This document shows, piece after piece, positions 9,952 to 58,527 of a DNA stretch of 64,000 nucleotides (its first letter is position 1; the number at the start of each line of letters is the position of its first letter). Made by a program: the position numbers and the translations under genes. This DNA is from Candidatus Omnitrophota bacterium (GTDB taxonomy: Bacteria > Omnitrophota > Gorgyraeia > B26-G9), in assembly GCA_043814605.1 (NCBI GenBank), contig JBDRJV010000035.1, forward strand, positions 10,275-74,274, read 5' to 3'. Below the pieces are notes generated by a model. It was not told where the DNA came from. It did not search any database and saw only the letters and a program-made list of their open reading frames with translations.

Positions 9952-10001
9952 TAAGTAGCGAGTAGTACCCTTACGGGCACAAGCGAGTAGCAAGTAGCGA
10001 G
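9952..10001. repeat. Heptad-repeat intergenic element, copy 1 of the 45-bp variant
   Basis: AGTAGCG/AGTAGTA/AGCGAGT/AGCAAGT 7-bp units flank the near-palindrome gtacccttacgggcac. It is nearly identical to 36533-36582. Confidence 0.7.
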
Positions 10002-10041
10002 AAAAATATTTTTACTTTATGCTAATCGCTAAGCGCTATCT

Positions 10042-11343
10042 TTAAATCGCCTGTTCGATTATCCCTTTATTAATAAATAAATTACTTTCTTGCGCTTCAA
10101 TGGGCAATGCTGGCTTTATTTGTTCGAATAAAACATTGAAATCCAACATGGAGTTTTGCGCTTTTATTGCAAAAATATCAAAATTATCCCAACCTTCAGA
10201 TTCATATGAATTAATTTTTTCAGTGATCAAGTTATATTTTTTAAATAAATCATAAATATAGTCGCTCCCCTTTAACACAACCATGTATAAAACTCCGTTG
10301 GGAGTAAGATACATATTAAATTCAGAAAACAATTTATTAAAAAACTCATAACTATTTTCTATTTCGGATACCCCTCGGCGTTGGTTAAATTTCGGAAAAA
10401 TTGTTTCCCCGGGTGGGAAAAATGCCATTGCACTAAATTTTCGCCCTTTTAAATTAGCAAATAAATTAGAATTTATTACTTCTACTTTATCCTCAACTCC
10501 TAAAGCATTAACTACCATCCGCGTATTTGTTATTGCTGTTTTTTTGTAATCAATGGCAACTGCGTTAGCTCCTGTTTTTTTTGCAATAATTCCGCTAAGA
10601 AAACCTGCGCCTGAGCCAATTTCTAAAATCTTATCCTGAGAATTAACTCTTTCTAAAACACTTTTTATCAGTATTTCTGTAGCTTTATTAATTGGATAAT
10701 ATACAGCAGAAACATATGGCAATTTATCAATACCTATATTCCAGTTTTTTAAAGAAACAGGCTTTATTAAAAAGATAGAAACTCCTTCATCAAAAATAAG
10801 TGAATTATCTAGTTGTTTTTTTAATTTTGGTAATTGTTCCGGGTCTAAATCCATCGCGGTAATTTCAACAAGATTGATTAAAAAAGTTCTTCGGTAATGC
10901 ATTAATTTTATCTTTAGTGCTAAAGGGTAGTTATCAGAATTTCTGATTAAAAATGCTTCAAATTCATTATTTAGACCTGGGATAATTTCTTTAACTAATT
11001 CTGTATTACCAATATTGACCGGAATATTGTTAGCGATTGGATTTTTCTGCTTAATAATTTCAAGTTTCAAATCGTCTAAAAAAACTTCAACCGTAGAATT
11101 AAGCTTAGGAAATTTAATTTTATCAAATAATGGTTTATTCCTATTCTGCCTGGTTAGAGAAATTTGTATATTTTTAAAAATTTCAGAAAAGTTATTAGCA
11201 TTTAATTGCATTGCCGGTGAAAGCAAATCGCTATTTTTATACGCAAAATTTTTCCCTGCTCCAAATGCCCATGTATGGGTTATTAAAATAAGCATTTGAA
11301 TTAAAATAAGTAATAGAATATTAAAAAACAATTTCTTATTCAT
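10042..11343 (-). CDS. Exported protein with a C-terminal class-I SAM-dependent methyltransferase fold (HemK/PrmC-like, degenerate NPPY)
   Basis: Signal peptide MNKKLFFNILLLILIQMLILITHTWAF. Motif I ILEIGSGAGFLSGIIAKK. A motif-IV-like AFFPPGE in place of NPPY. Confidence 0.5.
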   Translation of the reverse strand: MNKKLFFNILLLILIQMLILITHTWAFGAGKNFAYKNSDLLSPAMQLNANNFSEIFKNIQISLTRQNRNKPLFDKIKFPKLNSTVEVFLDDLKLEIIKQKNPIANNIPVNIGNTELVKEIIPGLNNEFEAFLIRNSDNYPLALKIKLMHYRRTFLINLVEITAMDLDPEQLPKLKKQLDNSLIFDEGVSIFLIKPVSLKNWNIGIDKLPYVSAVYYPINKATEILIKSVLERVNSQDKILEIGSGAGFLSGIIAKKTGANAVAIDYKKTAITNTRMVVNALGVEDKVEVINSNLFANLKGRKFSAMAFFPPGETIFPKFNQRRGVSEIENSYEFFNKLFSEFNMYLTPNGVLYMVVLKGSDYIYDLFKKYNLITEKINSYESEGWDNFDIFAIKAQNSMLDFNVLFEQIKPALPIEAQESNLFINKGIIEQAI

Positions 11344-11577
11344 AATTATTAATTTATCGTTAATTTATACTTTTAAAATGGTTTTATTATATTATATAAT
11401 TATATCATATTTAAATTAACTTTGCAAATCATTGAATTTATAACTTTCTTTATATCAATTAGATATGATAACTTATAAGTAAAATTTATCTTTAAACATT
11501 AAATTTAACTAATTAACTAAATAAAATACTCAACTAGTTTAAAATACCATAGTTAAGTGTTTATGAACATTAGGTTT

Positions 11578-14500
11578 TTAAATTGAACGCTCTAAATTCA
11601 TTATGAGTGCTTGCGAAGGAGCAGCGCTTTTTTCTAATATTTTATCTTCTCCTGTGTTTTTGACTGCTTCAGCCTGTTGTTGGGATAATTTTTCACTGAG
11701 TAATTCTAAAGCTTTTTTCATTGTTTGTTTTATTACAGGCAATTTAGTTTTGTCTTTGTAAAATATAACTAATCCCGGAGTCCCGCCAATAGCCATCATT
11801 CTTGCACTGTTACCGAATTCATAAACATTTAAGGCAATATTTAAAGTTAAACCTTTAGAGATTTCCAAAGAACCAAGCTCCCCTTCACCTTCCGGAAAAG
11901 AATGCGTAGGAATAAGAAATGCCAGAATTGACCTTTCAACCTGTGCCTGCATTCCTTCAATCGCAACATGAGAGAAACCCGGAAATACCATGCTAAAATT
12001 ACTAATCCCGAATTTCCCTAAATTTTCATTAATACTTTTTTTAACCTCTCCGATGTTTTCATCCTGAGCATCTGAAATCATATATCCTAAGCCAAAATAT
12101 TCAACAGTATCCAACCTGCCTTGTTGCTGTAACAAGTTAAAATAATAGCTTGCAATTACCTCCGGAGCATCATCGAAAGATTTATCCTTATAATTATTTT
12201 CTTCTTCCTGAGATATATTTTGTTCGCAAGCCACAGACATAACTATTCCGTTGTCTATATCCTTATGCACAACAACTTCATTATCTAAAGGCGGCAACGA
12301 ATAATCACTGCTTAATCTGCCCATATTTTTAAAGGCCTCGAAAGAATCCAAAATCACATCAACCATTTCTGTTTTTTTACCGCCAGATTCTGCATAATCA
12401 CTATAAAATATTGTCTTATTAATCGCTGCCAAAATTATTCCTGCTAAATCTTCAAGATTAACCCCCAAATCATCAGCAACCGGAATCAGCACATTCTCAA
12501 TATAAGCATTAAAAGCTCCTGGCAAACTGATATCATTTACATTCATTTTTGCCTGTTTAATTTTATCTGTAAGCTGTTTACGCCACTCGGATCTTCTTAT
12601 CGCTTTAGCCGCTTGAGCATTTTCTACAACCTCTTTCATCGGGATTATTCTATCTTTAAAACTTAATGCCTCACCAGGCTGTTTAAGCTGGCGCAGCATC
12701 AGAATTCCCTGAGATTCCGCTGTTGTTTCTCGGGTTGTTTTTACCGCAAGATTTGAGGTTGGGTCTTTATCTTCAAAATGGGAAAGCGTGATTACTTCTG
12801 TCTGCATCAGAACGGTAGCCCGGGCTTGAACCGCTAAATTATAGGCTAATTTTCTGTCTACTTCTGCCTGAGAATCACCTTTATTGACCTTTTCTATCCG
12901 CAACTCAATTACCTGCACAGGGATTTGATATAAACTTCTTAACATATTACTTTGAATTCGCATCGCCGCAGCCTCAGGAGAATTAGAGTCAATAAAAAAT
13001 ATAAACTGATAAAGATCAGGCCGGGCTTGTGCCAATTGCATATAATCATTATTGTTATCTCCAAAAGCAGAGAAAGAATGAATAAAATTATTTCTTTGTA
13101 ACCCCGGCGCCAGGCCGGCAATACCTTCATTTGTATTCTGCGCATGTTCCATAATAAAATTTGATAAAGTTTCCGGATAAACCATCCAAAATTTATTACG
13201 ATCTTTTGTATAATTTCGGCGTGCAGAAACAGCTAATTTACTTGCCGCGTTATTCATTGCCTGGTTAAGATTATTATCTTTTATCCGTTTCGGCATTAAT
13301 TCAATATTCGTTTGATAAATCCCCTGAGCATAAACCTTGAGCATTTTTTCCGCCCAATCAAATGTTTTATGTTTATCTTTAAACTGTTTATATCCGATAA
13401 TTGCCAGCCAGGAATATAAAGGCCCATAAACCATATCTGTTAATTCTAACATGTGCCGGCCGCCAATATCACTTCTGGTATTATCAATAAAGTAAACTGT
13501 CCCTTGCTCTGGATCAATGCTCATGGTCAAATTTTTTACTCTTCCTGCATTAGCCCAGGAAATCACATTTAAAATCTGCAGGAAAGCATTCGGATTAATC
13601 AGAATTTCCTGTAAATCAGCGGGTTCCGTTGTATTCCCGCTGCGGCTCATAACCCACATGATTACATTTTTAATTGTCGGGTCTCTAAAATTTTCTAAAA
13701 CCTGAAGGATTTGTGCCGGATTATCAACAATTTGTAAATTAAAGTTTATGCCTAAAGCTTTAACTAATTGATCCAGGATATCTCTTAAACGACGCGCATA
13801 CTGTTCATTTGCGCCAATGCCATTATTCAACACATTATCAATTTCTTCTATGTTCAGGTTATTTTCCATAAAATTTCTTAAGCCATCAATTGATTCTCTT
13901 AAATCCGAAAGCCCTTTTTCTCCATAAATTTCCAGATTAGATTCACTTGTAAACCACTCTGGTTTTTCTTTTCCATAACCAGGAAGCTGTAAAAACCGGC
14001 CGTAAAAATCATCAATCCCGTCAAAATGCGGAAAACTTGTTGTCTGCGCATCAATAAACTTTTGGATTAAAAGATTAGACAAATAATTTGCTGGGCCTGG
14101 ATTTAAAGCCGGGCTTTGCGAAGCAGGATAAACAGTAACTTCTTTATCCGTTACATTAATTTTAAGATAATTGTCACTTAAATCACTTATATTTAATGTT
14201 CCTGCATGTTTTGCTGCGTTAAGTTCATATCTTAGTATTTTAGATTTTAACTTTGGATTTTTCTTTAATATTTCCAAAACCTGCTCTTTAGTCTTACCGG
14301 ATTTTTTTGCTAATTCAATCACCGCCGGAACAAATGCATCTGCATCTAATGCATTAATAATTGTGCCAATAAGCCTTTCATAATTATATATACCGGCAAG
14401 ATCCATAGAAGCTTTAATCTCTTGCATTAAAAATTTTGGGTTTATTGCGGGTATCGCGTACTTTTTTAGAATATCTTCTTTCTTAATGCTAAACATTTGA

Positions 14501-14676
14501 TAGAAATTGATATTTTGCATATTAATAACTGGAGCAAGATTATTTCTTTCTTGAGGATTTGCACTTAATGACTTAATATCCCCGTCAGCAAAAGACATAT
14601 TTGATAATAAAAAACCATGAATAATTAGAAGAGTAAGAACTTTAACCCAAAATTTTCCTGTAAGAAACTTAACCAT
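11578..14676 (-). CDS. Large exported protein (1032 aa) with a central SIS/phosphoglucose-isomerase-like motif
   Basis: Signal peptide MVKFLTGKFWVKVLTLLIIHGFLLSNMSFA. VIMWVMSRSGNTTEP resembles the PGI SIS motif (V.SKSGTT.ET), and GGRHM..SWLAIIG is nearby. Confidence 0.4.
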   Translation of the reverse strand: MVKFLTGKFWVKVLTLLIIHGFLLSNMSFADGDIKSLSANPQERNNLAPVINMQNINFYQMFSIKKEDILKKYAIPAINPKFLMQEIKASMDLAGIYNYERLIGTIINALDADAFVPAVIELAKKSGKTKEQVLEILKKNPKLKSKILRYELNAAKHAGTLNISDLSDNYLKINVTDKEVTVYPASQSPALNPGPANYLSNLLIQKFIDAQTTSFPHFDGIDDFYGRFLQLPGYGKEKPEWFTSESNLEIYGEKGLSDLRESIDGLRNFMENNLNIEEIDNVLNNGIGANEQYARRLRDILDQLVKALGINFNLQIVDNPAQILQVLENFRDPTIKNVIMWVMSRSGNTTEPADLQEILINPNAFLQILNVISWANAGRVKNLTMSIDPEQGTVYFIDNTRSDIGGRHMLELTDMVYGPLYSWLAIIGYKQFKDKHKTFDWAEKMLKVYAQGIYQTNIELMPKRIKDNNLNQAMNNAASKLAVSARRNYTKDRNKFWMVYPETLSNFIMEHAQNTNEGIAGLAPGLQRNNFIHSFSAFGDNNNDYMQLAQARPDLYQFIFFIDSNSPEAAAMRIQSNMLRSLYQIPVQVIELRIEKVNKGDSQAEVDRKLAYNLAVQARATVLMQTEVITLSHFEDKDPTSNLAVKTTRETTAESQGILMLRQLKQPGEALSFKDRIIPMKEVVENAQAAKAIRRSEWRKQLTDKIKQAKMNVNDISLPGAFNAYIENVLIPVADDLGVNLEDLAGIILAAINKTIFYSDYAESGGKKTEMVDVILDSFEAFKNMGRLSSDYSLPPLDNEVVVHKDIDNGIVMSVACEQNISQEEENNYKDKSFDDAPEVIASYYFNLLQQQGRLDTVEYFGLGYMISDAQDENIGEVKKSINENLGKFGISNFSMVFPGFSHVAIEGMQAQVERSILAFLIPTHSFPEGEGELGSLEISKGLTLNIALNVYEFGNSARMMAIGGTPGLVIFYKDKTKLPVIKQTMKKALELLSEKLSQQQAEAVKNTGEDKILEKSAAPSQALIMNLERSI

Positions 14677-14944
14677 GTTTTACTCCTTTATGGGCAAACA
14701 TTAATTAAAATATTTTTACTTGAGAATTAGGAATATTCCTTTTTAATTTACCTTTAAAAAGAAATAAATAAGTTCAAAAGTATACCATATAATATTGTTA
14801 TATACAAGGGCCGGAATAATTTTTCTTTTACTATAACTTGCTGTACATAAAGGTGTTAAGATAAAGATTGAAAATTGTTCAGCATATAATTTTATTAAAC
14901 AATTATTTTAATTTAATGGGGAGGAATTTTTATCCTAAAAACAA

Positions 14945-16348: not shown

Positions 16349-16369
16349 TGAGTCTGTACGCCTTTCTGA

Positions 16370-17860: not shown

Positions 17861-17952
17861 GTTCAGGTCTCAGGTTACAAGTTACAGGTTTTAAGCCACA
17901 GGCATGTACTAATTCTTCTACTTGCTACTTGCTACTTACTGCCTGATGCTTG
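17861..17952. repeat. Heptad-repeat intergenic element with inverted arms
   Basis: Left arm CAGGTTA CAAGTTA CAGGTTT TAAGCCA CAGGCAT. Right arm CTTGCTA CTTGCTA CTTACTG CCTGATG CTTGTTA CTTATTG CTTGTTA. The arms are imperfect reverse complements of each other. It fills the whole gap between two rSAM genes. Confidence 0.7.
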
Positions 17953-19473
17953 TTACTTATTGCTTGTTACTTTTAAAAGTTTATCAATAAATTTATCCGA
18001 TAAATATTTTTTTACTAAATACTCTTTTTTTGCTTTTACGCTTATTGATTTATTTTTCATGATTAGATATTCTTTAATTTTAGATAAATTTACCTGTAGC
18101 ATTTGATAAAAAAGCAGGATTATACTTTTTTGAAAATACCTGCGGAAATGATATTGAGGATGCAATAAAAATAAATATTTTATCGGGTCAAAGGTAGAAA
18201 ATAAATTAAATAAAAAATGCTCAGTGGAAGATTCATCCGAACAAGTCAACCTTGCATCGTGATAAAATAAATCATCAATTTCAAAATCTTGGGTAATATT
18301 TTTATATCCGTAAGTTGTGGGAAAAGCTTTATAATTTCCCGCGCGGGCATCTGTACAGTATTTACGCGCAACAGAGTATTTAAGTTTTTCTGTTTGCTTT
18401 AATCCCGGAATACCGGAAATAAATAAACCCGTAACAAATATGTTATATTTTTTAAGTACTTTTATGGCTTTGAAATAACCCTGATCACGGGTAGAATTAT
18501 CTAACCCCTTATTGATTCTTGTTAATACCCGGGGATTTGTATGCTCAAACCCAATAATTATTCTCTTCAAACCGCTTCTTGCCGCAAAATCAATAAAACC
18601 CGGATTATTAATAATTGTATCAATTCTTAAAAAAGCGCCCCAGCTAAAATCAAATCTCTCCGACAGCATCATCTCAATTAATTGGCTGTCCCTGTTAATA
18701 TCATTAGCAAATCCATCATCAACAATCGCCAGTTGAGAAACCCCCAGGTTTTTTAAAATTTTCAATTCTTCTTTAACCCTGGGAAGAGATTTATACCTCT
18801 GCTGTTTTTCCCAAAAAGAGTTAACCAAACAAAAATTACAATCATTAATACAACCGCGGGAAGTTTCTATGCTTGCCGAAAACCCTTTCTGGGAAAGCAT
18901 TAAATCATAGAGTTTAAAATCAATAATCCCCCAATTAGGCAGAGGAGAACAATCTAAATCATCCAATAACGGATAATCCCCGGTATCGATAATTTGGCCG
19001 GCTGCCTGATAAATAAGTCCCGGGATATCTGCAAGATTTTGCCAATCATTTTTATGGGTTGAAGCTTTAATCAGCCGGAAAAATGTGCCTTCAGCCTCCC
19101 GCTTTACAATTATATCCACGCCTCTTTCAAGCCACTGCCTTGCATAAACATTAGCATGAATCCCGCCTGCGATAATTGGTTTCTGGGGGCAGATTTTTTT
19201 GATTATTTTTATCGTGATTTCATAATTAAGACTAACCAAAGAATCCATTATACTTAAAACAATAACATCATATTTTTGAACAAGTTTTTTGTATTCGGGG
19301 ATTGTTAAACTATCATAAAAACCGTCAAAATAAAAAACTTCATGCTCCAGCGGGACTAAAGCAGCCAGTAAAGGAAAAGTTACTCCGGGATTAGAAAAAA
19401 GATATCTGGCAAAATCATTACGAACCGGCCAGGCAGTATGAATATCTAAGGGGTTTAAGAACAAGATTTTCAC
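17953..19473 (-). CDS. B12-binding-domain radical SAM protein (paralogue 3)
   Basis: Same architecture, with TSRGCINDCNFCLV. Confidence 0.75.
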   Translation of the reverse strand: MKILFLNPLDIHTAWPVRNDFARYLFSNPGVTFPLLAALVPLEHEVFYFDGFYDSLTIPEYKKLVQKYDVIVLSIMDSLVSLNYEITIKIIKKICPQKPIIAGGIHANVYARQWLERGVDIIVKREAEGTFFRLIKASTHKNDWQNLADIPGLIYQAAGQIIDTGDYPLLDDLDCSPLPNWGIIDFKLYDLMLSQKGFSASIETSRGCINDCNFCLVNSFWEKQQRYKSLPRVKEELKILKNLGVSQLAIVDDGFANDINRDSQLIEMMLSERFDFSWGAFLRIDTIINNPGFIDFAARSGLKRIIIGFEHTNPRVLTRINKGLDNSTRDQGYFKAIKVLKKYNIFVTGLFISGIPGLKQTEKLKYSVARKYCTDARAGNYKAFPTTYGYKNITQDFEIDDLFYHDARLTCSDESSTEHFLFNLFSTFDPIKYLFLLHPQYHFRRYFQKSIILLFYQMLQVNLSKIKEYLIMKNKSISVKAKKEYLVKKYLSDKFIDKLLKVTSNK

Positions 19474-22729: not shown

Positions 22730-23416
22730 TTAAGAAAAACCGCTGTTTTTGTTTTCTGCTTGCAGAAATTTCTTGCGATAAGAAATTGCCCAGTTTAACA
22801 ATACTAATTGAATAATAACAATAAAAAAACCATATCCCAAATATCTAATACTTTTAGATCCTTGAAAAAAAGAATAACCAAAATATAAAATAAAAATAAG
22901 AATTCCTGTAATTAATACCCGGATGATTTCTCCGTTATACACCACCTGAGTTAAACTATACCGAAGCGGGTTTTTTTCTTTATATTTTTTGAATCTAGGA
23001 ATAAATGCTGGTACGGAATTTTTATATTCTATATACTCGGCTTTAAATAAATCCGCTAATAAGGCCTCTTCCTTCTTCACTGTCCCTAGGTAAAAAAAGA
23101 AAAATAAAACACAGTAAGCACCCCATAAAATATAATTACGCACAAAAAAACAAAAACCGAGTCCGATTAAAAAATTGCCGACATATAACGGATTACGCAC
23201 AAAAGCATAAGGCCCGGAGGTGGTCAACTGTCTGATTTTTTTTATATACCCGGCTGCCCATAACCTGATCATCACTCCGGCTAAGATATACCCTATCCCA
23301 AACCGAAAATTATTTTCCGTAAAACCCTGCTTATAAGCAAAAAATAAATATACTATTGCCAGCGGATATGCTGCCCACAAACGCATTTTTTTAAATCTAA
23401 ACTTTTCCAACTTCAA
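22730..23416 (-). CDS. Isoprenylcysteine carboxyl methyltransferase (ICMT)/phospholipid methyltransferase-family membrane protein
   Basis: YAFVRNPLYVGNFLIGLG motif in a multi-TM protein. The start is probably the TTG at 23408-23410 or the ATG at 23384-23386, downstream of an AGGAG. Confidence 0.55.
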   Translation of the reverse strand: MKLEKFRFKKMRLWAAYPLAIVYLFFAYKQGFTENNFRFGIGYILAGVMIRLWAAGYIKKIRQLTTSGPYAFVRNPLYVGNFLIGLGFCFFVRNYILWGAYCVLFFFFYLGTVKKEEALLADLFKAEYIEYKNSVPAFIPRFKKYKEKNPLRYSLTQVVYNGEIIRVLITGILIFILYFGYSFFQGSKSIRYLGYGFFIVIIQLVLLNWAISYRKKFLQAENKNSGFS

Positions 23417-23458: not shown

Positions 23459-23712
23459 TAAAAATCAAATAAAAAAAGCATACATTGAGAAATCATATGT
23501 GATTTTGTTTAATTTATGGATGGAGATGAAGACCCGCCTAGTCATCTTCAGAGTAGCCTCACTGTGGTGGCGAGGCTGGCACGATGTCGCAACGCCATAA
23601 ACCAAGGATGGTTTTTTGGCAGCGAAGTCTTCAAACATAAATTATTACAAAATAAATATTATTTCTTAGGATGTGTTTTTATTTGATTTCCAAAGATCTA
23701 TCATTATTTTAT
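23459..23712 (+). repeat. Roughly 250-bp structured intergenic repeat, copy 1 (candidate sRNA, cis-regulatory RNA or mini-ORF element)
   Basis: About 88% identical to 26787-27047. It contains the hairpin tgaagatga-agacccgcctag-tcatcttca, the stem gcctc/gaggc and the closing gaagac/gtcttc, plus a conserved small ORF. Confidence 0.8.
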
Positions 23713-23786
23713 TGCGTTATTACTGCTGCAACAAATTTAAATTATAAGTGCAAAAAACTTATTTTTTCTAATCGCTAACCGCTATA

Positions 23787-24488
23787 TTAAAATTTGTATC
23801 CAATTCCAAAATTAATTGCCCATTCGTCAAAAAAGCGTATTTCTGCATTAGCATTTACATCATCTTTAATCTGATAATCAGCCCCCAGGAGAAAACCCCA
23901 GCAATCTTCGCTTTTTAACCGCCGCCTTAAATCACCTTGCTTGTACTTAAGCTGCGTATTGCTATATTGAGGGCCAAAATAAATATCGTTTTCCCTAAAT
24001 TCTTTTATAAACAGCCATGTTCCCTGCCATTCATCCCAAATTACCCGGTGCTCTATATTATTGACCGTATCTTTAAACGGATGACAACTTATATGCTGGA
24101 ATCCAAAGATTGACTTAATTTTTTCTTTCTCATCTGCATAAAATAGATAGCGAATCCCATAACCTCCGGCAAAACCAGTCGGGAAATCAAGATTTAACCC
24201 ATCATTACGCTGAAAAGAAACATTGCCCAACCCAACTTTTCCGTCAATAAATAACCGCTTGGTTAAGCCGTAACTGGCTTTAAGAAAATACTGGGTTGTC
24301 GCTCCCTGGCCCGGGACTTTATTAAAATCACGCTTAAAGATATGATTATACTGAAAACCCCAGATTGTCGTGTGCAAACCAGGCAGAAAATTCCCCTCAG
24401 ACGGAATGGCCAATAAACTCGGGTAAGATAAAAATAAGCTTAAGAAGCTGATTAAGCTTATGCAAACAATAAATTTTATCCGTTCCAT
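23787..24488 (-). CDS. Outer-membrane beta-barrel protein (signal peptide, C-terminal aromatic residue)
   Basis: MERIKFIVCISLISFLSLFLSYPSLLA signal peptide, alternating amphipathic segments, C-terminus IGYKF. Confidence 0.45.
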   Translation of the reverse strand: MERIKFIVCISLISFLSLFLSYPSLLAIPSEGNFLPGLHTTIWGFQYNHIFKRDFNKVPGQGATTQYFLKASYGLTKRLFIDGKVGLGNVSFQRNDGLNLDFPTGFAGGYGIRYLFYADEKEKIKSIFGFQHISCHPFKDTVNNIEHRVIWDEWQGTWLFIKEFRENDIYFGPQYSNTQLKYKQGDLRRRLKSEDCWGFLLGADYQIKDDVNANAEIRFFDEWAINFGIGYKF

Positions 24489-26325: not shown

Positions 26326-26429
26326 CCTACATGATTATTAATTATAATTTTTTGCGTCCTTCGTCATTGTTCTTTCATCTTTTGCTTTTACTATTATCCG
26401 GAATCAACCTTCAACCCCTAACATTCGCA

Positions 26430-26765
26430 CTATAACCTAACTTCATCATTATCCACAACTTCGGCTTCTACATCAATAACTCCACCGCTTGTATCTGTAT
26501 GACTATGATTATTATTCTGATGATCTCTATTCTCGGAGTTAAAACCTCCTTGCGTTTTCTGAAAAGAATCTTTAAATGTGCCAAATAAAACATTCTTGCC
26601 CACAAGTAAAGCTGCAAAAAAAATAACCAGTAATATCCCGCCTAAAGCCAGCCAGAAGAAAAAACGAAAGAATAATAACCCAAAGAAAAAATTAAATAAT
26701 AGAAGCATGCCTATAAAATGCACCAATTTACCTACTATATATAAAATTCTTGAACTTAACCGCAT
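26430..26765 (-). CDS. Small membrane protein with a His/Asn-rich C-terminal tail (hypothetical)
   Basis: Two hydrophobic helices followed by NSENRDHQNNNHSHTDTSGG. No family was recognised. Confidence 0.35.
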   Translation of the reverse strand: MRLSSRILYIVGKLVHFIGMLLLFNFFFGLLFFRFFFWLALGGILLVIFFAALLVGKNVLFGTFKDSFQKTQGGFNSENRDHQNNNHSHTDTSGGVIDVEAEVVDNDEVRL

Positions 26766-26786: not shown

Positions 26787-27047
26787 TAAAAATCAAACAA
26801 AAAAAAGCAGCCATTAAGAAATTATGTGTGATTTTGTTTAATTTATGTATGAAGATGAAGACCCGCCTAGTCATCTTCAGAGTAGCCTCACTGTGTTGGC
26901 GAGGCTGGCACGACGTCGTAACGCCGTAAACCAAGGATGGTTTTTCGGTGGCGAAGTCTTCTATACATAAATTATTACAAAATGAACATTAGTTTCTTAG
27001 AATGCGTTTTTGTTTGATTTTCAAAGATCATTTATCACATTAACATA
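26787..27047 (+). repeat. Roughly 250-bp structured intergenic repeat, copy 2
   Basis: Direct repeat of 23459-23712 in the same orientation. It lies immediately upstream of the minus-strand small membrane protein gene and downstream of the HI0933-family gene. Confidence 0.8.
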
Positions 27048-35546: not shown

Positions 35547-35600
35547 TAAGTCTCAGGTTACAGGTAACAGGCTACAGGCTGCAAGTTGCAAGCTACAAGC
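35547..35600. repeat. Heptad-repeat intergenic element (single arm)
   Basis: CTCAGG TTACAGG TAACAGG CTACAGG CTGCAAG TTGCAAG CTACAAG, seven consecutive 7-bp units NNNCARG. Confidence 0.65.
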
Positions 35601-35645
35601 TAAAAACTGCATATTACATGATCCCTATGCCACCTGCCACATTTT

Positions 35646-36518: not shown

Positions 36519-36532
36519 ATTTAAATTTTTTT

Positions 36533-36582
36533 AGTAACGGGTAGTACCCTTAAGGGCACAAGCGAGTAGTAAGTAGTAAGTA
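36533..36582. repeat. Heptad-repeat intergenic element, copy 2 of the 45-bp variant
   Basis: gtagtacccttaagggcacaagcgagtagtaagtagtaag, with a perfect 10-bp palindrome cccttaaggg. It matches 9961-10001. Confidence 0.7.
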
Positions 36583-49085: not shown

Positions 49086-49103
49086 TACTCTTTGTGAATC
49101 AGC

Positions 49104-52730: not shown

Positions 52731-52772
52731 AATTTTTAAAGCTCCAAGCTACATGCGGCAAGTTACAGATTT

Positions 52773-53714
52773 TTAGGTTTTAGCTTTAGGAATTTTATGT
52801 TTTGGTAATTTTGCGTATAAAGAAACTCCGTTATCCGGAAACTCTGCTTCACAGCAAGCAATACATCCTGTACCTGAACCAATACACCAATTAACTCCGT
52901 TATTCCAGCGCCGTAAACTACAATCAGCATAAGCTACTGGCCCTTTACAGCCTAATTCCGCTAAACACCCGGGCTGTCCATATTCTGAAGCAAATTCTGC
53001 ATTAGCAAAAAATGAATAATTTGTGCAATTTTCATGAATGTTTTCTTTATAGAACATTGCCGGCCGACCATCCTTTAACAATTCTGGTATACCAAAATTA
53101 AGCACATGCACTATGGTTCCCACAACCCAATCCGGATGCGTCGGACAGCCAGAAATATTAATTACCGGTTTATCTATCTTGCCGCTAACCTCAGCTAAAC
53201 TTTTGACCTGCGTTGGATTAGGTTTTGCTGAGGGAATACCGCCGAATGCAGCGCAAGTGCCTACCGCCATTAGCACTCCTGCATCCGGGACTAAATTCTG
53301 GACTGCTTCAACTAAAGTAATTGGCTGGCCGTTACGTTCGCCAATCGTACAATAAAGACCATTTTCAGCTGTAGGCACTCCGCCTTCAAGAATCAAAATA
53401 AATTTACCTTTAAATTTTTGTGCAGTCTCCTGAATATGGTCAAAAGCAGTCTTTCCTGTACCGGCCATAAGCGTAGGGTGATATTCTAAATTAATAATCT
53501 GAATTAAAACTTCGGCAATCTTAGGGTGAACAGTATTGAGTAAAGAAATAGAACAGCCATTACAACCTGCGCCTTGGAGCCAAATTACCGCAGGTTTATC
53601 AACTCCACTGCCGGTTAATGCTTTGACAATAACCGGATTATAGGAACTGGTTATGGCTGCTGCAGCAGCGGATGAGCTAAAAATTTTTAAAAACTGTCTG
53701 CGGGTAAATTTCAT
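52773..53714 (-). CDS. [NiFe] hydrogenase small subunit, Tat-exported
   Basis: Twin-arginine signal MKFTRRQFLKIFSSSAAAAA and an FeS Cys cluster (GCNGCS, GCP.HP). The start is assigned to the second Met, with GGAG upstream. Confidence 0.9.
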   Translation of the reverse strand: MKFTRRQFLKIFSSSAAAAAITSSYNPVIVKALTGSGVDKPAVIWLQGAGCNGCSISLLNTVHPKIAEVLIQIINLEYHPTLMAGTGKTAFDHIQETAQKFKGKFILILEGGVPTAENGLYCTIGERNGQPITLVEAVQNLVPDAGVLMAVGTCAAFGGIPSAKPNPTQVKSLAEVSGKIDKPVINISGCPTHPDWVVGTIVHVLNFGIPELLKDGRPAMFYKENIHENCTNYSFFANAEFASEYGQPGCLAELGCKGPVAYADCSLRRWNNGVNWCIGSGTGCIACCEAEFPDNGVSLYAKLPKHKIPKAKT

Positions 53715-53782
53715 TTTCCCTTTATTTTCTCCCTGCGTTAAAACAATCAGGCCCTTCAAAAAATATCTTTAAGATGTTTCTT

Positions 53783-53810
53783 ATTTTATTACTTCCCTGC
53801 TTCTAGTCAA
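53783..53810 (-). promoter_or_regulatory. Sigma-70-like promoter of the hydrogenase operon (-35 TTGACT, 16-nt spacer, -10 TAAAAT)
   Basis: Minus-strand TTGACT (53805-53810) and TAAAAT (53783-53788), about 70 nt upstream of the small-subunit ATG. Confidence 0.4.
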
Positions 53811-53852
53811 GATTTTTAATGAGCTCTCTGAAAAACTCCTTAAAACTATATC

Positions 53853-53892
53853 AGAGATTTCTGTATTTTTTTGGACTTTTTCAGAAATCTCT
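53853..53892. terminator. 11-bp inverted repeat agagatttctg..cagaaatctct with a 19-nt loop, between the era stop and the hydrogenase promoter
   Basis: Perfect 11-bp arms. On the minus strand it is followed by GATATAGTTTT. It is a candidate era terminator or an operator. Confidence 0.4.
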
Positions 53893-53906
53893 TAATTGCC
53901 GGAAAT

Positions 53907-54821
53907 TTATTTTATTTCGTATCCTAACCTGCGCAAAAAAGCACTGTCTTTACGCCAATGCGTATGCACTTTTACCCATAATTCCAGAAAAATACTTCTT
54001 TGTAAAAATTCTTCAATTTTTTTTCTGGCTGCTGTACCGATATTTTTAAGCATCTGCCCTTGTTTGCCAATTATAATTTTTTTCTGAGCCTGGCGTTCTA
54101 AAAAAATTGTAGCTTGAATCAATGTTTTCCGGCCGGGATTATTTTTTAAAGCTTGGATTTCCACTGCCACAGAATGCGGAATTTCCTCATGGCATAAATT
54201 AAGCACTTGCTCCCGGATTAATTCCGCCACAATAAAACGCTCATTTTTATCTGTTAACTGATCCTCAGGATAAAATGCCGGCCCCGGCCGCAGGGATTTT
54301 TTGATTTTTTCAAATACAACATCAAGATTTTTACCGCTGAGCCCGGAAACCGGAATAAATTCATCTACCGCTAAATATTGACGCGCCTGGTCTAAAAGCG
54401 GGAAAATTTGATTTTTTTTAATCAGATCAATTTTGTTGATTAAAACACAAGACCAGACATATTTTCCCAACATTTTTTTATTTTTAATCAGTTTGAAAAT
54501 TTCTTGATCCGCAGTTGTTATTCCGCTGGCTGCATCAAGAATAATAACCAGAAGATCCGCATCCTGAGCAGCTTGGGATGCCTGAGACATCATACACTCT
54601 CCCAACTTCGTCTTCGGGACATGCACCCCCGGCGTATCCGTAAAAATAATCTGGCAATTATTTTCACTATAAATACCCATTATGGCATCCCGGGTTGTCT
54701 GAGGTTTGGCGGAAATTATCGAAAGCTTCTGGCCTAAAAAATAATTCAATATTGTGGATTTACCTACATTCGGTTTCCCCAATAAAGTAACATATCCGGA
54801 TTTAAATTTTGTTTTTTTCAC
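53907..54821 (-). CDS. era: GTPase Era
   Basis: G1 GKPNVGKST, G3 DTPG, G4 NKID, and a C-terminal KH domain. Confidence 0.9.
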   Translation of the reverse strand: MKKTKFKSGYVTLLGKPNVGKSTILNYFLGQKLSIISAKPQTTRDAIMGIYSENNCQIIFTDTPGVHVPKTKLGECMMSQASQAAQDADLLVIILDAASGITTADQEIFKLIKNKKMLGKYVWSCVLINKIDLIKKNQIFPLLDQARQYLAVDEFIPVSGLSGKNLDVVFEKIKKSLRPGPAFYPEDQLTDKNERFIVAELIREQVLNLCHEEIPHSVAVEIQALKNNPGRKTLIQATIFLERQAQKKIIIGKQGQMLKNIGTAARKKIEEFLQRSIFLELWVKVHTHWRKDSAFLRRLGYEIK

Positions 54822-54824
54822 GTT

Positions 54825-56087
54825 TTATTTTTTCTGCTTTTTAGTGTTAATTTTCTGGCAATCCTGGGGGCATTTTTCACATTCTGAACCACACGGTTCA
54901 ACGTGAATATTTATTTTATATTTGGGAAAATACTTACGCAATACATTCCTGAGGTCATGCTCAAGTTTATGGGACTGCTCGATATTCATTAATTTTGAAA
55001 TAACAATATGTAAAGTTAAAAAATCACCGCTTTCATTGCTTAAAATTTCTACACCGTGAAAATTTATAATTCTGGGATATCTGGCTATTATTTTCCTTAA
55101 AATTTTAAAAGTAACTGTTTTCTTTTTTCTTTTTGTTTTTTGCAAATCAATATGCACAATGGGACTGGAATTTATCTTCTCGGCGATTCTGGTTTCTACG
55201 GTTGCGGCAATCTGATGCGCGGTAACCGAATCTAATTTGTAGAATACCTCAACGTGCAAAGAAATTGCCTTATGGGTTCCGTAGTCATGGGCCGCGATAT
55301 CATGTACTCCCTGAACGCCTTCTACACTGTAAGCAATAGTTTCAATTTCTTTGCGTAAATTATCATCTAAAGCTTTCCCCAGAAGATGAAAAACAGAGAT
55401 TTTAATTAATTTAATTCCCGTATAAATCACATATGCCGCAACAATTGCCCCAAAAATACTGTCTAAACGAAACATACCAAACATTGAAGCAATCATTGCC
55501 GCAATTACTAAGAGCGTGGAAATTGCATCGGAGCGATGGTGCCAGGCATCAGCATATAAGATTGATGAATCTATTTTTTTTGCTAAATAAAAAGAAAACC
55601 GCGCCAGCCATTCTTTTACCATAACCGAAATAACCAGAATAAAAACAATGCTAAAATTGGTTTTTACTTCCACAGGATTATTAATCCGGCTAAAAGCAGA
55701 TTGCAGAATTTCTACCCCCACCACACACAATAAAACAGCAATAATCAGTGTTGCAATATCCTCTATGCGGCCGTGGCCAAAAGGATGGTCTTTATCCGCC
55801 GGCTTATGCGAAATCGTAAACCCCCAAATCACCACGCCGGAAGTTGCTACATCAGAAACTGTATGCACTGCATCGGCAATAATACTTACACTGCCTGTAT
55901 AAATACCGAGAATAATTTTTACTAAGAATAAAATAACATTAACAATTACGCTAACCCAACCTTCTAAAAAACCAAAACGTATCCGCATTTGATCCGGGTC
56001 AAGTTTGGCCTTTAAATTATTTGAATTAACTGTATTATTGGAACTGTCTATTTTTTTAATTAAAAATTCTGTCAGACTAAATTTCAT
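54825..56087 (-). CDS. Cation diffusion facilitator (CDF) family metal efflux transporter with a C-terminal Cys-rich tail
   Basis: Six TM helices, HxxxD-type motifs (HHRSDAIST), a cytoplasmic C-terminal domain, and a CGSECEKCPQDC tail. Confidence 0.75.
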   Translation of the reverse strand: MKFSLTEFLIKKIDSSNNTVNSNNLKAKLDPDQMRIRFGFLEGWVSVIVNVILFLVKIILGIYTGSVSIIADAVHTVSDVATSGVVIWGFTISHKPADKDHPFGHGRIEDIATLIIAVLLCVVGVEILQSAFSRINNPVEVKTNFSIVFILVISVMVKEWLARFSFYLAKKIDSSILYADAWHHRSDAISTLLVIAAMIASMFGMFRLDSIFGAIVAAYVIYTGIKLIKISVFHLLGKALDDNLRKEIETIAYSVEGVQGVHDIAAHDYGTHKAISLHVEVFYKLDSVTAHQIAATVETRIAEKINSSPIVHIDLQKTKRKKKTVTFKILRKIIARYPRIINFHGVEILSNESGDFLTLHIVISKLMNIEQSHKLEHDLRNVLRKYFPKYKINIHVEPCGSECEKCPQDCQKINTKKQKK

Positions 56088-56120
56088 ATTTTCTTTTTCC
56101 CTTTTTTTCTCTTTTTTTCC

Positions 56121-56573
56121 CTATACACTAAAAAAATCTACTTCGCTAACAACCCTTATCCCCTGATTTTTTAAAAGCGCGGTTAAAATCCCATTGCCGT
56201 TTATTAATCTCTGCTGAAAAGTTCCGTCATATATTTTTCCTACGCCGCAAGCCGCACTCTTAGATTTTAATATTGCCAGGCTGATTTTATTTTCTTGTGC
56301 TAAGTTTTTCGCTTTTTCCGCTCCGTCGAGCAGCTGCGCGGTTACATCCTGGCCTAATTTATTAATCACCTTTGCCTGGTTATTAATAACATCTTCTCCG
56401 CTGCCGCCGATAATCTCACAAGGCGGCCGGGGCACAGGCAATCCGCCCATAACTTCAGGACAGACTAAGATTACTTTGCCTTTTTCTTTTAACTTTACGA
56501 TTAAAGCCAGGGGCTGAGAGAGTCCATCATAACGGCATTTTTCTCCGGCTAAACAAGCACTGGCTAAAATCAT
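56121..56573 (-). CDS. DUF523 (TudS-like) family protein
   Basis: MILASACLAGEKCRYDG N-terminus, characteristic of DUF523. Confidence 0.6.
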   Translation of the reverse strand: MILASACLAGEKCRYDGLSQPLALIVKLKEKGKVILVCPEVMGGLPVPRPPCEIIGGSGEDVINNQAKVINKLGQDVTAQLLDGAEKAKNLAQENKISLAILKSKSAACGVGKIYDGTFQQRLINGNGILTALLKNQGIRVVSEVDFFSV

Positions 56574-57679
56574 TGTTTATTTTTCCTTTTTTCTCTTAAA
56601 AGCATACTTTGCGCATAGTCCTGAGCGATATTAATCCGTTTTTGCGTTGATAAATAAAAATCAAAACCAGAGAGAATAAAATTTTCTTCCGGAATATTTA
56701 AATCTGTTTCCCGAATCAATACTGAAATAAATGCATCCGGAGCATTAGTAATTTGCAAAATAAATAAATCTACTGTTTTTTCGATGTTGTTCTTAATCAC
56801 ACTGCTCAGCAAAAAAAATACCAGAAAAACAAAAAATAATAGTAACAGCAGAACCGAAACAGTAGAAATATAAAATAAAAACTCAAATTTAAAAATACCC
56901 GCAGCCTTTTCAAACATCACGCTGACTAAATAAAATCCGAAAAAAACAGCGATTGCCGGTATCAGGATGAATTTCCAAACATATCCGTAATAATGATACG
57001 CCGCTTCCCGGGTGAAAATAACCCCGATTTCTTCTTTTGCATACTGCACGCTATTTTCATTTATAAAAAGCTTGCGTCCCGGCTCAAACCCCACAAGCAT
57101 TGCTTGCGGTTTTAATTTATAATCACGCAAAAGAACAATATCATTTATACTAAATCCGATTTTTCCCGCTAAACTCCGTAAATACTCTTTCCGGGATTCA
57201 TCCGCCCAATCAATTTTACGGTAAAACATAATCGTCAAATAACGCCAGAAAAACTTATCCGTAAAAATATAAGTAAAAAAACAAATCAAGGCTGTAGGAA
57301 TCCACCAGGTCGTAGTATCTGATTCTAAAAAATAATAAGCAACTTGAGAAAAAAATAAGAAAAAACAAAATATTTTTATTTCTTTTTTTAATACCCTATC
57401 CCGCCATTGTTTAAAACTCTGCTGCGGTTGTGCATACTTTGGCCTGAGAATAAATTCATCGTAAATTTTAAGGCCAAGCGTAAAAATAAAATAGGACAGA
57501 TAAAAAAATAAACAAAATAGGGTAATCACAATAATTGAGTTGCCGGTAATTAACCGGATGAACTCTAATAAGCTTGAGGAAAAACTGTAAGACATTATCA
57601 GCAGAAAAAAAACAGTTAAAAAAAGATGCAGATAAAAAATAATTTTCTTTTTTTCTAAATAAACCTTGTCTGCTTTCAT
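56570..57679 (-). CDS. Multi-pass membrane protein (hypothetical)
   Basis: 369 aa, with 7 or more hydrophobic helices and Phe/Leu-rich stretches. No family was recognised. Confidence 0.3.
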   Translation of the reverse strand: MKADKVYLEKKKIIFYLHLFLTVFFLLIMSYSFSSSLLEFIRLITGNSIIVITLFCLFFYLSYFIFTLGLKIYDEFILRPKYAQPQQSFKQWRDRVLKKEIKIFCFFLFFSQVAYYFLESDTTTWWIPTALICFFTYIFTDKFFWRYLTIMFYRKIDWADESRKEYLRSLAGKIGFSINDIVLLRDYKLKPQAMLVGFEPGRKLFINENSVQYAKEEIGVIFTREAAYHYYGYVWKFILIPAIAVFFGFYLVSVMFEKAAGIFKFEFLFYISTVSVLLLLLFFVFLVFFLLSSVIKNNIEKTVDLFILQITNAPDAFISVLIRETDLNIPEENFILSGFDFYLSTQKRINIAQDYAQSMLLREKRKNKQ

Positions 57680-58201
57680 TTAAAATTCCTTACGTGATAG
57701 ATTATTGCGAATATGGTTAAATATTGCAATATATTCGCCGGTTGCGTAATCCGGGTATGTCCAGTCCCAGGCGGTAAAAGTCTTACCGCGAAAACGCAGC
57801 GTAACTTCTGCAAAGATACCTTTATCCAGGTACAGCCGATGCTGGTGGTCTTTAGTTGTGGCCAGGACCAGTTTAGAAAGAGTTAAATACCCGGGATCAA
57901 TATTGATCCGGCGTTTTTTATTTTTTCCCGCGAAAATATTTTCTAGCTTATTCGAATATAGCTTTATTTTCGCTAGATCCCTAACACAAATCTCACGTTT
58001 AAAGCTTAAAAATTTTCTTTTTAATCCTGTTCCCATTTCCGGCTCATAGTAATCTGTGAAATTAAAATCAATAATTTTGCTTTCAAAATCAAGCTCTCCA
58101 AACTTTTTGATTAATTTTTTAATCACCGGAATGAATAATTTTACCGGCCCAATCAAGCCGATAATTAATTTTACTTTGGGGTGTTTACAAGGAATACCCA
58201 T
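57680..58201 (-). CDS. Hypothetical protein (probable start ATG 58199-58201)
   Basis: Open frame. The track start at 58231 is a TTG inside the heptad repeat. MGIPCKHPKVKLIIGLIG is the first ATG-initiated N-terminus. Confidence 0.4.
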   Translation of the reverse strand: MGIPCKHPKVKLIIGLIGPVKLFIPVIKKLIKKFGELDFESKIIDFNFTDYYEPEMGTGLKRKFLSFKREICVRDLAKIKLYSNKLENIFAGKNKKRRINIDPGYLTLSKLVLATTKDHQHRLYLDKGIFAEVTLRFRGKTFTAWDWTYPDYATGEYIAIFNHIRNNLSRKEF

Positions 58202-58207
58202 ATTTTT

Positions 58208-58527
58208 TAGGTTGCAGGTTGCAAGCCGCAAGTATTATTTCATATGTAGTGTCTCAATGTAAAGTTTACAAATAACGGCTAAGGTTGAACGGTTACGATG
58301 TCCGCCGGAGAAGCAGCGAGACCTCGATATGCATTGTAGCGGGCCCGTATCGTCAATCGGTTACGGTGACGTATTTTTAATGCTTTGCACACGTTGCCGT
58401 TGTAAGTTGCCGAAACAGGCTTCGTTACCTTCACTTTTTACCAAATAATATAAATTTGAAAATACACCCTTGAGATTATACATTTCATGTTCTGTCTGAT
58501 ACCTGTTACCTGAGACCTGACACTTGT
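58208..58527. repeat. Composite intergenic element: inverted heptad-repeat arms (58208-58232, 58495-58525) flanking a roughly 260-bp ORF-free, GC-richer core (candidate MITE-like element or ncRNA)
   Basis: Left arm TAGGTTG CAGGTTG CAAGCCG CAAG. Right arm CTGATAC CTGTTAC CTGAGAC CTGACAC TTG, the reverse complement of a CAGG/CAAG heptad array. The core has no ORF of 60 aa or more on either strand. It contains the palindrome cgggcccg and the direct repeats cggttacg (twice) and gttgccg (twice). Confidence 0.55.

Follow-up and report, generated by a model that had tools for sequence, protein, structure and literature searches.

Degenerate heptad arrays with a CYTG core and gene-relative polarity in intergenic spacers of a Candidatus Omnitrophota chromosome segment

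In a 64-kb stretch (64,000 nucleotides [nt]; hereafter "the window") of contig JBDRJV010000035.1 from Candidatus Omnitrophota, we found one family of intergenic, degenerate tandem heptads built around a YYTG core and present far beyond chance. Their orientation is ordered by the polarity of the adjacent genes: pyrimidine-rich arms stand directly before start codons, and complementary purine-rich arms stand directly after stop codons. Arrays of this kind are missing from the orthologous spacers of relatives, and heptads of other sequence occur in the spacers of these genomes.

RESULTS

A period-7 signal confined to intergenic DNA

An earlier note on this DNA had picked out six spacers made of heptad repeats. 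Period-7 arrays are indeed present at all six of the positions given. Independently, Tandem Repeats Finder (TRF) reported period-7 rows at 17918-17937, 35554-35602 (7.0 copies), 36565-36582, 58209-58223, and 58496-58520. What the arrays have in common is a core of four bases, C-Y-T-G (CARG when read from the opposite strand), after which three bases vary; in register, the unit reads as a degenerate Y-A-R-C-Y-T-G (YARCYTG). The pattern CYTGNNNCYTGNNNCYTG, i.e., (CYTGNNN)x2+CYTG, matched 12 times, as against 0.01 matches expected from dinucleotide-preserving shuffles. Likewise, five arrays carry at least three exact CYTG cores at 7-nt spacing (0.005 in shuffles), and a relaxed 4-unit scan returned seven regions (0.11 in shuffles).

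When no core was assumed, autocorrelation over 5.3 kb of intergenic DNA reached 0.336, 0.330, and 0.316 at lags 7, 14, and 21, respectively, against a background of ~0.30. These peaks occurred only in intergenic DNA, coding DNA showing period 3 only, and the intergenic confinement proposed in the note is thereby upheld. Sliding windows at lag 7 recovered the same arrays (seven windows, five of them not AT-only, versus 0.42 in shuffles), and sliding windows at lags 5, 6, and 8 to 11 gave 0 to 3 each. TRF matches ranged from 75 to 100%; the longest array was matched at 80%, its seven different units sharing C-Y-T-G. Identical neighboring units run to two or three at most, and core positions C, T, and G are invariant while the four other positions vary inside a single array. 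These arrays, with their shared YYTG/CARG core, form one family of 7-nt periodic elements, as had been supposed.

Array orientation follows gene polarity

All ORFs (open reading frames) that tile the window lie on the minus strand, and we read polarity after writing all spacers on the coding strand and aligning the arrays in register. Six CYTG arms end 0 to 19 nt before the ATGs at 9933, 17860, 35542, 36518, 52730, and 58201; these start-proximal arms are pyrimidine-rich (purine fraction, 0.35 to 0.48), and their usual end is an A-tract (..CCTAAAAAATATG, ..CTTTAAAAATTATG). Complementary arms of the CARG or UAG-N4 type are stop-proximal, at 10020-40, 17915-70, 58492-526, and 23768-87, with weaker ones at 26402-23 and 4224-52, and have a purine fraction of 0.57 to 0.71. 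The purine contents of the six start-proximal and the six stop-proximal arms show zero overlap (exact rank probability of ~0.002 by our own arithmetic). Consistently, (UAG-N4)x3 was matched three times versus 0.30 expected, in all three cases on the coding strand and 2 to 18 nt after a stop codon; at its 7-nt period, this motif closes all three reading frames.

The same bias was seen in other genomes. Among the matches listed, we compared 55 arrays from genomes with a GC content of <0.52, taking as a start that of an ORF of at least 100 amino acids (aa) within 60 nt. A start codon followed nine CYTG arrays versus no CARG array, and a stop codon preceded 19 CARG versus 8 CYTG arrays. Thus, array orientation does differ between loci on the plus strand, which the earlier note took as behavior expected of mobile or recombination-derived repeats, but it is ordered by gene polarity.

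Two of the arrays also mislead ORF-start calling, as had been suspected. The ORF finder runs through them to TTG 9993 and TTG 58231, and ATGs are available in frame at 9933 and 58201. The product from ATG 58201 begins MG....KVKL, as does its ortholog in locus L001. The two ATGs are likely the real starts and the two TTGs false ones.

Layout of the individual arrays

All arrays of the window lie on the minus strand, and their units are given here as read on the coding strand. Both arms occur, in inverted orientation, in spacers A, B, and E, where they are placed around 18, 20, and 260 nt, respectively. In spacer A, the start-proximal arm (9953-10001) consists of CTCGCTA CTTGCTA CTCGCTT, a 16-nt palindrome, GTGCCCGTAAGGGTAC (9965-9980), and CTACTCG CTACTT, followed by an A5 tract; 19 nt downstream comes ATG 9933 of a gene for a PEP-utilising enzyme. 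Its stop-proximal arm (10020-10040), GA UAGCGCU UAGCGAU UAGCA, contains (UAG-N4)x3 at 10022-10038, starts 3 nt past the stop of a methyltransferase ORF (10042-11343), and pairs with its start-proximal counterpart. A near-identical 20-mer forms an isolated stop-proximal arm at 23768-23787, AUAUAGCGG UUAGCGA UUAG, with (UAG-N4)x3 at 23768-23784, directly following the stop of ORF 23787-24488.

In spacer B, the start-proximal arm (17861-17902; CCTGTGG CTTAAAA CCTGTAA CTTGTAA CCTGAGA CCTGAAC) adjoins ATG 17860 of a B12-binding radical SAM gene, with no Shine-Dalgarno (SD) sequence evident. The stop-proximal arm (17915-17970; GTAACAAG CAATAAG TAACAAG CATCAGG CAGTAAG TAGCAAG TAGCAAG TAGAAG) is 71% purine, contains (UAG-N4)x3 at 17918-17934, and overlaps the final codons and stop of ORF 17953-19473. 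In spacer E, the start-proximal arm (58205-58232) reads CTTGCGG CTTGCAA CCTGCAA CCTAAAA AAT ATG, running into ATG 58201 of a DUF4416 gene, and the stop-proximal arm (58492-58526; CAAGTGT CAGGTCT CAGGTAA CAGGTAT CAGACAG) begins 1 nt past the aroC stop (58528-58530). The two inverted arms enclose an orphan segment of ~260 nt (58233-58491; no strand assigned) with a GC content of 0.40.

The remaining CYTG arrays are single. Array C, the longest (35550-35602), holds seven exact CYTG units (CTTGTAG CTTGCAA CTTGCAG CCTGTAG CCTGTTA CCTGTAA CCTGAGA). It lies downstream of the xerC/D-like gene, and 11 nt separate its end from ATG 35542 of a Kdo transferase gene. Array D (36532-36580) comprises CTTACTA CTTACTA CTCGCTT, the palindrome GTGCCCTTAAGGGTAC (36544-36559), and CTACCCG TTACTA, followed by an A7 tract, and stands 14 nt ahead of the start of the xerC/D-like recombinase gene itself (ATG 36518). 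The weak array F (52738-52769; TCTGTAA CTTGCCG CATGTAG CTTGGAG CTTT plus an A-tract) precedes ATG 52730 and fills the 42-nt spacer between the genes for the small and large subunits of an NiFe hydrogenase.

Further arrays lie outside the six spacers cited originally. Arm N (256-292), of the CARG type (CAGGCTG CAAGTAA CAGGATG CAGGCTA), fills a spacer of ~35 nt from the stop of a NirD/L-like ORF (272-754) to ATG 237. Heptads with another core (63088-63122; TTTAGGG TTTAGAA TTTGATG TTTAGAG) occupy a 97-nt spacer upstream of ATG 63069. Weaker instances are three heptads just past the stop of ORF 26430-26765 (26402-26423; GTTAGGG GTTGAAG GTTGATT) and A-rich CAAATRM repeats with a period of 7 to 8 nt, ~20 nt past the stop of a TrkH-like ORF (4224-4252; ORF 4275-6014).

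The earlier note had also recognized two near-identical palindrome copies. These are the arrays A (9953-10001) and D (36532-36580), with 86% identity over ~58 nt from T5 to A5 flank, and their palindromic core, GTACCCTTANGGGCAC, occurs at only these two sites in the window. JGI metagenome contigs gave 0 matches to further A/D palindromic blocks. Three arms of the window have TWACCTGAGACYTGA in common.

RNA folding, promoters, and Shine-Dalgarno strength

As RNA, single arms folded no better than shuffled sequences (z = +0.97, +1.17, +0.04, and +0.17), nor did any of the spacers B, C, D, F, N, and E, including the two-armed spacers B (z = +0.44) and E (z = -1.55), whose arms pair weakly and match only via the 4-nt cores. 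Hence, of the long imperfect palindrome that the note described at 17861-17952, the two inverted heptad arms are real, but the corresponding RNA fold is at shuffle level. Spacer A is the only clearly structured spacer in the window (z = -2.58); in its predicted fold, the UAG and CTCGCTA arms form a duplex, and a small GUGCCCGUAAGGGUAC hairpin follows. Sigma-70-like promoters and intrinsic-terminator-like sites around all arrays were likewise at shuffle level, and a hairpin or terminator reading of the arrays was rejected on these two grounds. One promoter-like site, TTTACA-18-AATAAT at 58263-58234, lies just upstream of the start-proximal arm of spacer E, so that the 5' leader of the DUF4416 gene would consist of this arm alone. 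Sigma-54 or Bacteroidetes-type promoter motifs, as well as complementarity to the 16S rRNA 3' region, had been considered by eye only and were dropped as unsupported.

We compared the translation signals of the array genes with those of the other genes. The median anti-SD duplex energy was -2.7 kcal/mol for array genes versus -5.3 kcal/mol for others (Mann-Whitney p = 0.06, n = 7 genes). The idea of leaders unusually unstructured relative to those of other genes was rejected, since neither minimum free energies (MFE) nor z-scores differed.

The orphan segment of spacer E gave only chance-level matches when Rfam was searched at an E-value threshold, and it holds no ORF of >51 aa and none that is convincing. 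A gene remnant was rejected, as tblastn with the Fer4_16 protein found at the same position in locus L005 returned nothing. Neither the rest of the window nor any of ~540 fetched loci contains another copy of the ~260-nt core. The target-site (direct) duplications that the note had suggested looking for were not seen at its flanks, and the insertion by itself is weak evidence of mobility. TATAAT-like hexamers lie near both ends of 58233-58491. The segment could be either a relic or a small RNA gene restricted to this lineage.

Orthologous spacers in Omnitrophota relatives

We found no CYTG arrays in the syntenic loci of three relatives with aroC products 74 to 77% identical to that of the window. 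There, the aroC-DUF4416 gap is 3 to 10 nt, as compared to 296 nt in the window, and the ~260-nt segment is absent; judged by this comparison, the 296-nt spacer is an insertion relative to these genomes. Similarly, at the junction of the two hydrogenase subunit genes, relatives carry a plain AAAGGAG Shine-Dalgarno sequence in place of array F. In ten loci around xerC orthologs (57 to 83% identical), the topA/xerC spacer measures 0 to 10 nt in relatives versus 104 nt with array D in the window, and the xerC/kdtA spacer measures ~25 nt versus 103 nt with array C. A position next to topA is the usual place of the xerC/D-like gene in all relatives. Thus, arrays are missing from orthologous spacers even where the proteins are 73 to 83% identical.

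Heptads of other sequence occupy several spacers of these genomes. The xerC/kdtA spacer of L543 (1271-1312) contains GGGTTTA x5, and those of L545 (4865-4890) and L544 contain a single AGGGTTTAGAGG, an apparent snapshot of heptad expansion in situ from an SD-like seed. In L547, CTGGTTA x3 adjoins the xerC ATG and is preceded by its inverted complement. In L005 (11715-11797), AAGTTAT/AAATTAT x6 follows the upstream stop in inverted orientation, and TAACTCA x4 then runs into the DUF4416 ATG. This is the layout of spacer E in the window, with a unit one base off the TAACTGA of Beggiatoaceae. ACAGAGT arrays lie directly past the ilvB stop in L001, TTCTGTC precedes ilvD in L005, and in L181, a contig from a distant omnitrophote, a single spacer of 775 nt accommodates five arrays, which start past the stop and are all of the purine type when read on the coding strand. 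DUF4416 and xerC are thus preceded by arrays in different relatives, with a different unit each time. Taken together, these comparisons suggest that the clade fills spacers with fast-evolving heptad arrays, in which the polarity of purine after stop and pyrimidine before start recurs, and that turnover is fast and expansion local. Aside from this, the L543 unit, GGGTTTA, is the heptamer of plant telomeres.

CYTG heptads beyond Omnitrophota

The pattern (CYTGNNN)x5 had at least 120 matches in viral contigs, and (CYTGYDR)x4+CYTG, with a chance expectation that we estimate to be well below 1, had at least 120 matches in contigs of one genome per species and at least 120 in viral contigs. The genome matches listed came from cyanobacteria, Bacteroidota, Chloroflexota, Acidobacteriota, Proteobacteria, the candidate phyla radiation (CPR), and two other Omnitrophota; cyanobacterial arrays of CYTG-type heptamers among them were from Anabaena, Nostoc, Calothrix, Moorena, and Okeania. 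Some of the genome matches listed are perfect microsatellites, and many keep an ACYTG core within otherwise degenerate units.

That CYTG is uniquely favored among heptamer arrays was rejected in its simple form, given that the scrambled cores GYTC and CYGT gave 85 and 101 viral loci, respectively, versus at least 120 for CYTG. With scrambled-core arrays nearly as numerous, heptamer arrays as such need no special function. However, among the matches listed, at least three distinct units occurred within the first four in 51% of the CYTG viral arrays versus 3 to 4% of the scrambled-core controls. It is the subtype with a conserved core and variable filler, and not the tandem heptamer in general, that is special to CYTG.

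Many of the viral matches are relatives of pelagiphage HTVC027P (MN698241). Pelagiphages of the HTVC023P type carry several arrays per genome, each with 4 to 12 degenerate heptads (G)CTTGNN that read CAAGCNN on the gene strand and end in a conserved CAAGCTTGACA-N12-TAGTATAGG motif before small genes. In HTVC027P (L126), arrays lie at 3606-3630, 3915-3953, and 4712-4850, and similar ones occur in IMG/VR contigs such as L006, L009, and L010. Like those of the window, these arrays are degenerate, with a conserved (G)CTTG core and two variable bases; unlike them, they are reversed relative to the genes (CAAGCNN on the coding strand in 37 versus 1, among the matches listed) and are followed by the promoter-like TTGACA-N12-TAGTATAGG. 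They look like unannotated promoter-associated arrays, and to our knowledge they have been neither annotated nor discussed so far. One of the HTVC027P arrays lies inside annotated gp32. In a separate set of GC-rich IMG/VR contigs (L043, L028, L029, and L037), CCTGAYT/CTCCTGA heptads occur on both strands, some of them immediately before GGAG..ATG, and correspond to the MTYCTGA x5 "global regulator sites" of Geobacter metallireducens.

Comparison with known repeat classes

The earlier note could not tie the period to any repeat class, and it named membership of a known class as an outcome that would count against its proposal. Such a tie exists, and in broad terms this outcome applies: long simple sequence repeats (LSSR), short tandemly repeated repetitive sequences (STRR), and the heptamers of TAACTGA, Geobacter, and Nostoc type have all been described, and the window arrays belong broadly to the known heptanucleotide repeats, from which their unit, degeneracy, and inverted-arm layout set them apart. 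We found no paper describing such heptamer repeats in Omnitrophota.

The TAACTGA heptamers, the function of which is unknown, are found in marine Beggiatoaceae, some cyanobacteria, and Bacteroidetes; they are mostly intergenic and forward-oriented, ending a few nucleotides before start codons that usually lack a ribosome-binding site, and one-base variants seldom occur as repeats (MacGregor 2015, PMC4679880). Partners discussed for them are S1, cold-shock proteins (one CspB per heptamer), and CsrA (PMC4679880). The window arrays resemble these repeats in being intergenic, forward-oriented, close before start codons, and dominated by one unit family. They differ in their unit, YARCYTG, in being degenerate around a 4-nt core instead of exact copies, in having a complementary arm after the upstream stop (the inverted-arm layout), and in phylum. 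A search of the window for tandem TAACTGA with up to two mismatches gave one match, in coding DNA, versus 0.41 expected, and no intergenic tandem.

According to the summary in PMC4679880, heptanucleotides are the most abundant class of long simple sequence repeats in prokaryotes (Mrazek and co-workers 2007), and LSSR and STRR heptamers show a sporadic phylogeny and a preference for non-coding DNA, with slippage as their proposed origin. The window arrays likewise consist of head-to-tail 7-nt units in non-coding DNA, far longer than chance; unlike near-perfect LSSR or STRR, they combine a conserved core with variable filler and gene-relative polarity. Canonical STRR units in heterocystous cyanobacteria are CCCCAGT, TTGGTCA, and CAACAGT, from which the window units differ, and the host here is an omnitrophote and not a cyanobacterium. 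Nostoc heptamer repeats occur near start codons and promoters and have effects in reporter constructs. In Geobacter metallireducens, MTYCTGA x5 ("class 3 global regulator sites") and GGACCGG x4 lie in and between genes and were proposed to be regulatory (PMC2700814). These too are multicopy sets of tandem heptanucleotides, but they differ from the window arrays in unit, GC content, and fixed copy number, and neither polarity nor inverted arms were described for them.

The spacing of (UAG-N4)x3 recalls RNA sites of the HutP and TRAP type, in which an oligomeric protein reads regularly spaced triplet cores. HutP recognizes three UAG triplets spaced by 4 nt, its site consisting of two such sets that overlap a terminator. 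The window has this spacing on the mRNA strand in three motifs after stops, a likeness of mechanism only; unlike HutP sites, it has single UAG sets, with no terminator enriched there, and a HutP protein was not searched for. We know of no HutP-like protein in Omnitrophota. Repetitive extragenic palindromes (REP) are imperfect palindromes of 20 to 40 nt with a GTAG head, present in many copies and associated with REP-associated tyrosine transposases (RAYT; IS200/IS605-like). Unlike REP and bacterial interspersed mosaic elements (BIME), the 16-nt palindrome of the window is found in two copies only, other arrays have no palindrome, and single arms are unfolded. Spacer E shares inverted arms with miniature inverted-repeat transposable elements (MITE), yet it is not flanked by a direct duplication, and its 260-nt core is unique. 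CRISPR arrays, with repeats of 23 to 47 nt and unique spacers, differ from these 7-nt repeats without spacers.

Genomic context of the window

The window is AT-rich (GC content of 0.29 to 0.39) and is a chromosome segment of a Candidatus Omnitrophota metagenome-assembled genome (MAG). Its chorismate synthase (the aroC product) is 100% identical to a Candidatus Omnitrophota MAG protein, and the next relatives, at 74 to 78%, are Omnitrophota as well. Pfam matches among the 30 window ORFs scanned are to ordinary chromosomal genes, namely those for a PEP-utilising enzyme, B12-binding radical SAM enzymes, Kdo transferase, an XerC/D-like recombinase, topoisomerase I, NiFe hydrogenase, aroC, DUF4416, heme and siroheme genes, RecJ, and CstA; no transposase or RAYT was among these 30 ORFs. 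ARAGORN found no tRNA genes in the window, and Rfam at the gathering threshold gave zero matches over its whole length, the arrays thus corresponding to no known structured RNA family.

The ~50 genes of the window (1-64000) all lie on one strand, an extreme co-orientation, and GC skew is uniformly negative on the plus strand; the single-strand orientation over 64 kb presumably goes along with replication. An ORF of 1,032 aa at 11578-14676 has no Pfam match and is bordered on either side by AT-rich spacers of 234 and 268 nt. In addition, an intergenic pair of ~240 nt, at 23505-23745 and 26787-27029 on the minus strand, is 90% identical, its copies sitting upstream of ORFs 22730-23416 (PEMT/ICMT-like) and 26430-26765 (without a Pfam match). 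The pair has a predicted multi-stem fold of -45 kcal/mol, its changes comprising one compensatory and two one-sided ones, and shows no Rfam match even at E<=1. We regard it as a candidate for an unknown cis-regulatory RNA.

DISCUSSION

Of the explanations considered for these arrays, we give about an even chance to one in which they would be born by slippage, be transcribed inside operons, and act as unstructured leader or spacer RNA for genes with weak Shine-Dalgarno sequences. Arrays would be gained and lost rapidly, most likely through slipped-strand replication that starts from a local seed, a longer block being copied occasionally, as may have happened with A and D. They would be transcribed within polycistronic mRNAs, because spacers of 35 to 300 nt separate co-directional, tightly packed genes, the hydrogenase pair included, and the gene-relative polarity points to a strand-specific constraint at the RNA level. 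In such an mRNA, the CYTG arm with its A-tract would give the start codon an immediately adjoining leader that has little structure and a weak Shine-Dalgarno sequence, and could serve as a standby or S1-type entry site or as a landing pad for an OB-fold (oligonucleotide/oligosaccharide-binding) protein with a 7-nt footprint. The purine-rich CARG or UAG-N4 arm after the upstream stop would close all three reading frames, and where both arms occur they would pair, usually weakly.

Several observations weigh against this reading. Polarity has two exceptions in the window: Arm N, of the CARG type, takes up a 35-nt spacer adjoining a start codon, and the TTTAGRG array at 63088-122, of the UAG type, is start-proximal. 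The Shine-Dalgarno difference is a trend over seven genes (p = 0.06), and leader folding energies (mean MFE and z-scores) are no different from those of other genes. One unit family dominates the genome, which random-seed slippage alone does not predict. Scrambled-core heptamer arrays are common in viral contigs too, and the absence of arrays at most equivalent spacers of close relatives fits neutrality as well as function.

Neutral debris is a possibility to be taken seriously, if a less probable one. Slippage favoring 7-nt units would inflate non-essential spacers, decay would follow, and polarity would reflect what the neighborhoods of starts and stops tolerate. Arrays missing from spacers that lie between genes for 73 to 83% identical proteins, units that differ between relatives, the expansion in situ visible on comparing L543 with L545, the abundance of scrambled-core arrays, and the rank of heptanucleotides as the most abundant prokaryotic class of long simple sequence repeats (as summarized in PMC4679880) are all as such debris would have it. 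Neutral decay does not, however, readily account for invariant C, T, and G positions within arrays whose four other positions vary, nor for the share of degenerate, core-conserved arrays in the viral contigs listed, 51% for CYTG versus 3 to 4% for the scrambled-core controls. Strong gene-relative polarity here and in other phyla, the dominance of a single unit family, and the repeated occurrence of arrays before DUF4416 and xerC in relatives, with differing units, likewise speak against it.

We consider it unlikely that the arrays are platforms for an oligomeric single-strand RNA-binding protein that would contact one core per 7 nt, by analogy with HutP and cold-shock proteins, and regulate translation or anti-termination. 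A conserved 4-nt core in a fixed 7-nt register with variable filler, three stops each followed on the coding strand by an exact (UAG-N4)x3, unstructured arms, and strand-specific polarity would suit such a protein, and Csp and S1 have been discussed for the TAACTGA repeats (PMC4679880). The 30 Pfam-scanned ORFs, however, included no RNA-binding domain of this kind and yielded no candidate protein, and units that change among close relatives would require either co-evolving specificity or very loose recognition. A broader version is more speculative still: (A)CYTG heptads could be a cross-phylum, polarity-constrained mRNA cis-element that is read by a widespread single-strand-binding protein with a 7-nt footprint (e.g., one with a cold-shock domain) and sets the translation of weak-SD cistrons, pelagiphages using the core reversed near promoters.

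Dispersed mobile or recombination-derived elements, MITE- or REP/BIME-like and with heptad-built ends, are very unlikely. They would explain the 86% identity of A and D over ~58 nt with T5/A5 flanks and a central palindrome, beside which the plus strand carries a GTAG that we take to be reminiscent of REP heads, as well as the TWACCTGAGACYTGA shared by three arms and the 296-nt spacer E as an insertion bounded by inverted arms. But the palindromic block is found only twice in 64 kb and not in JGI metagenome contigs, a palindrome is missing from most arrays, no further copy of the 260-nt core was found and no direct target duplication is evident, none of the 30 Pfam-scanned ORFs is a transposase or RAYT, and the xerC/D-like gene stands in its usual place beside topA; moreover, random insertion would not give gene-relative polarity. 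Least probable of all are DNA-level iterons, where a transcription factor or nucleoid protein would bind operator or UP-like arrays, for which one may cite the CAAGCNN arrays ending in CAAGCTTGACA-N12-TAGTATAGG before genes in HTVC027P and related contigs, the heptamer direct repeats that serve DNA-binding regulators in other systems (TTTTGAT of the ctxAB promoter and the heptamers of Streptomyces antibiotic regulatory proteins [SARP]), and, by our own reckoning, the two helical turns (21 bp) made by three heptads, but against which stand spacers too short for a promoter between surely co-transcribed genes (the 42-nt hydrogenase spacer), arrays that end 0 to 19 nt before ATG, promoter- and terminator-like sites that are not enriched around them, and an orientation opposite to that of the phage arrays.

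In practical terms, because arrays extend ORF calls upstream, as at 9993 and 58231, it is advisable to mask them when gene starts are predicted in genomes of this kind. The function of heptanucleotide repeats has been unknown since the first cyanobacterial STRRs, and this locus adds to them a candidate phylum and a unit with a conserved 4-nt core. It also adds two regularities, namely a pyrimidine arm before the start and a purine or UAG arm after the stop, and the recurrence of arrays, built from different units, at the same spacers in relatives. Should the polarity hold genome-wide, an RNA-level role would be favored over slippage noise in DNA, and the arrays would offer simple baits for a binding partner.

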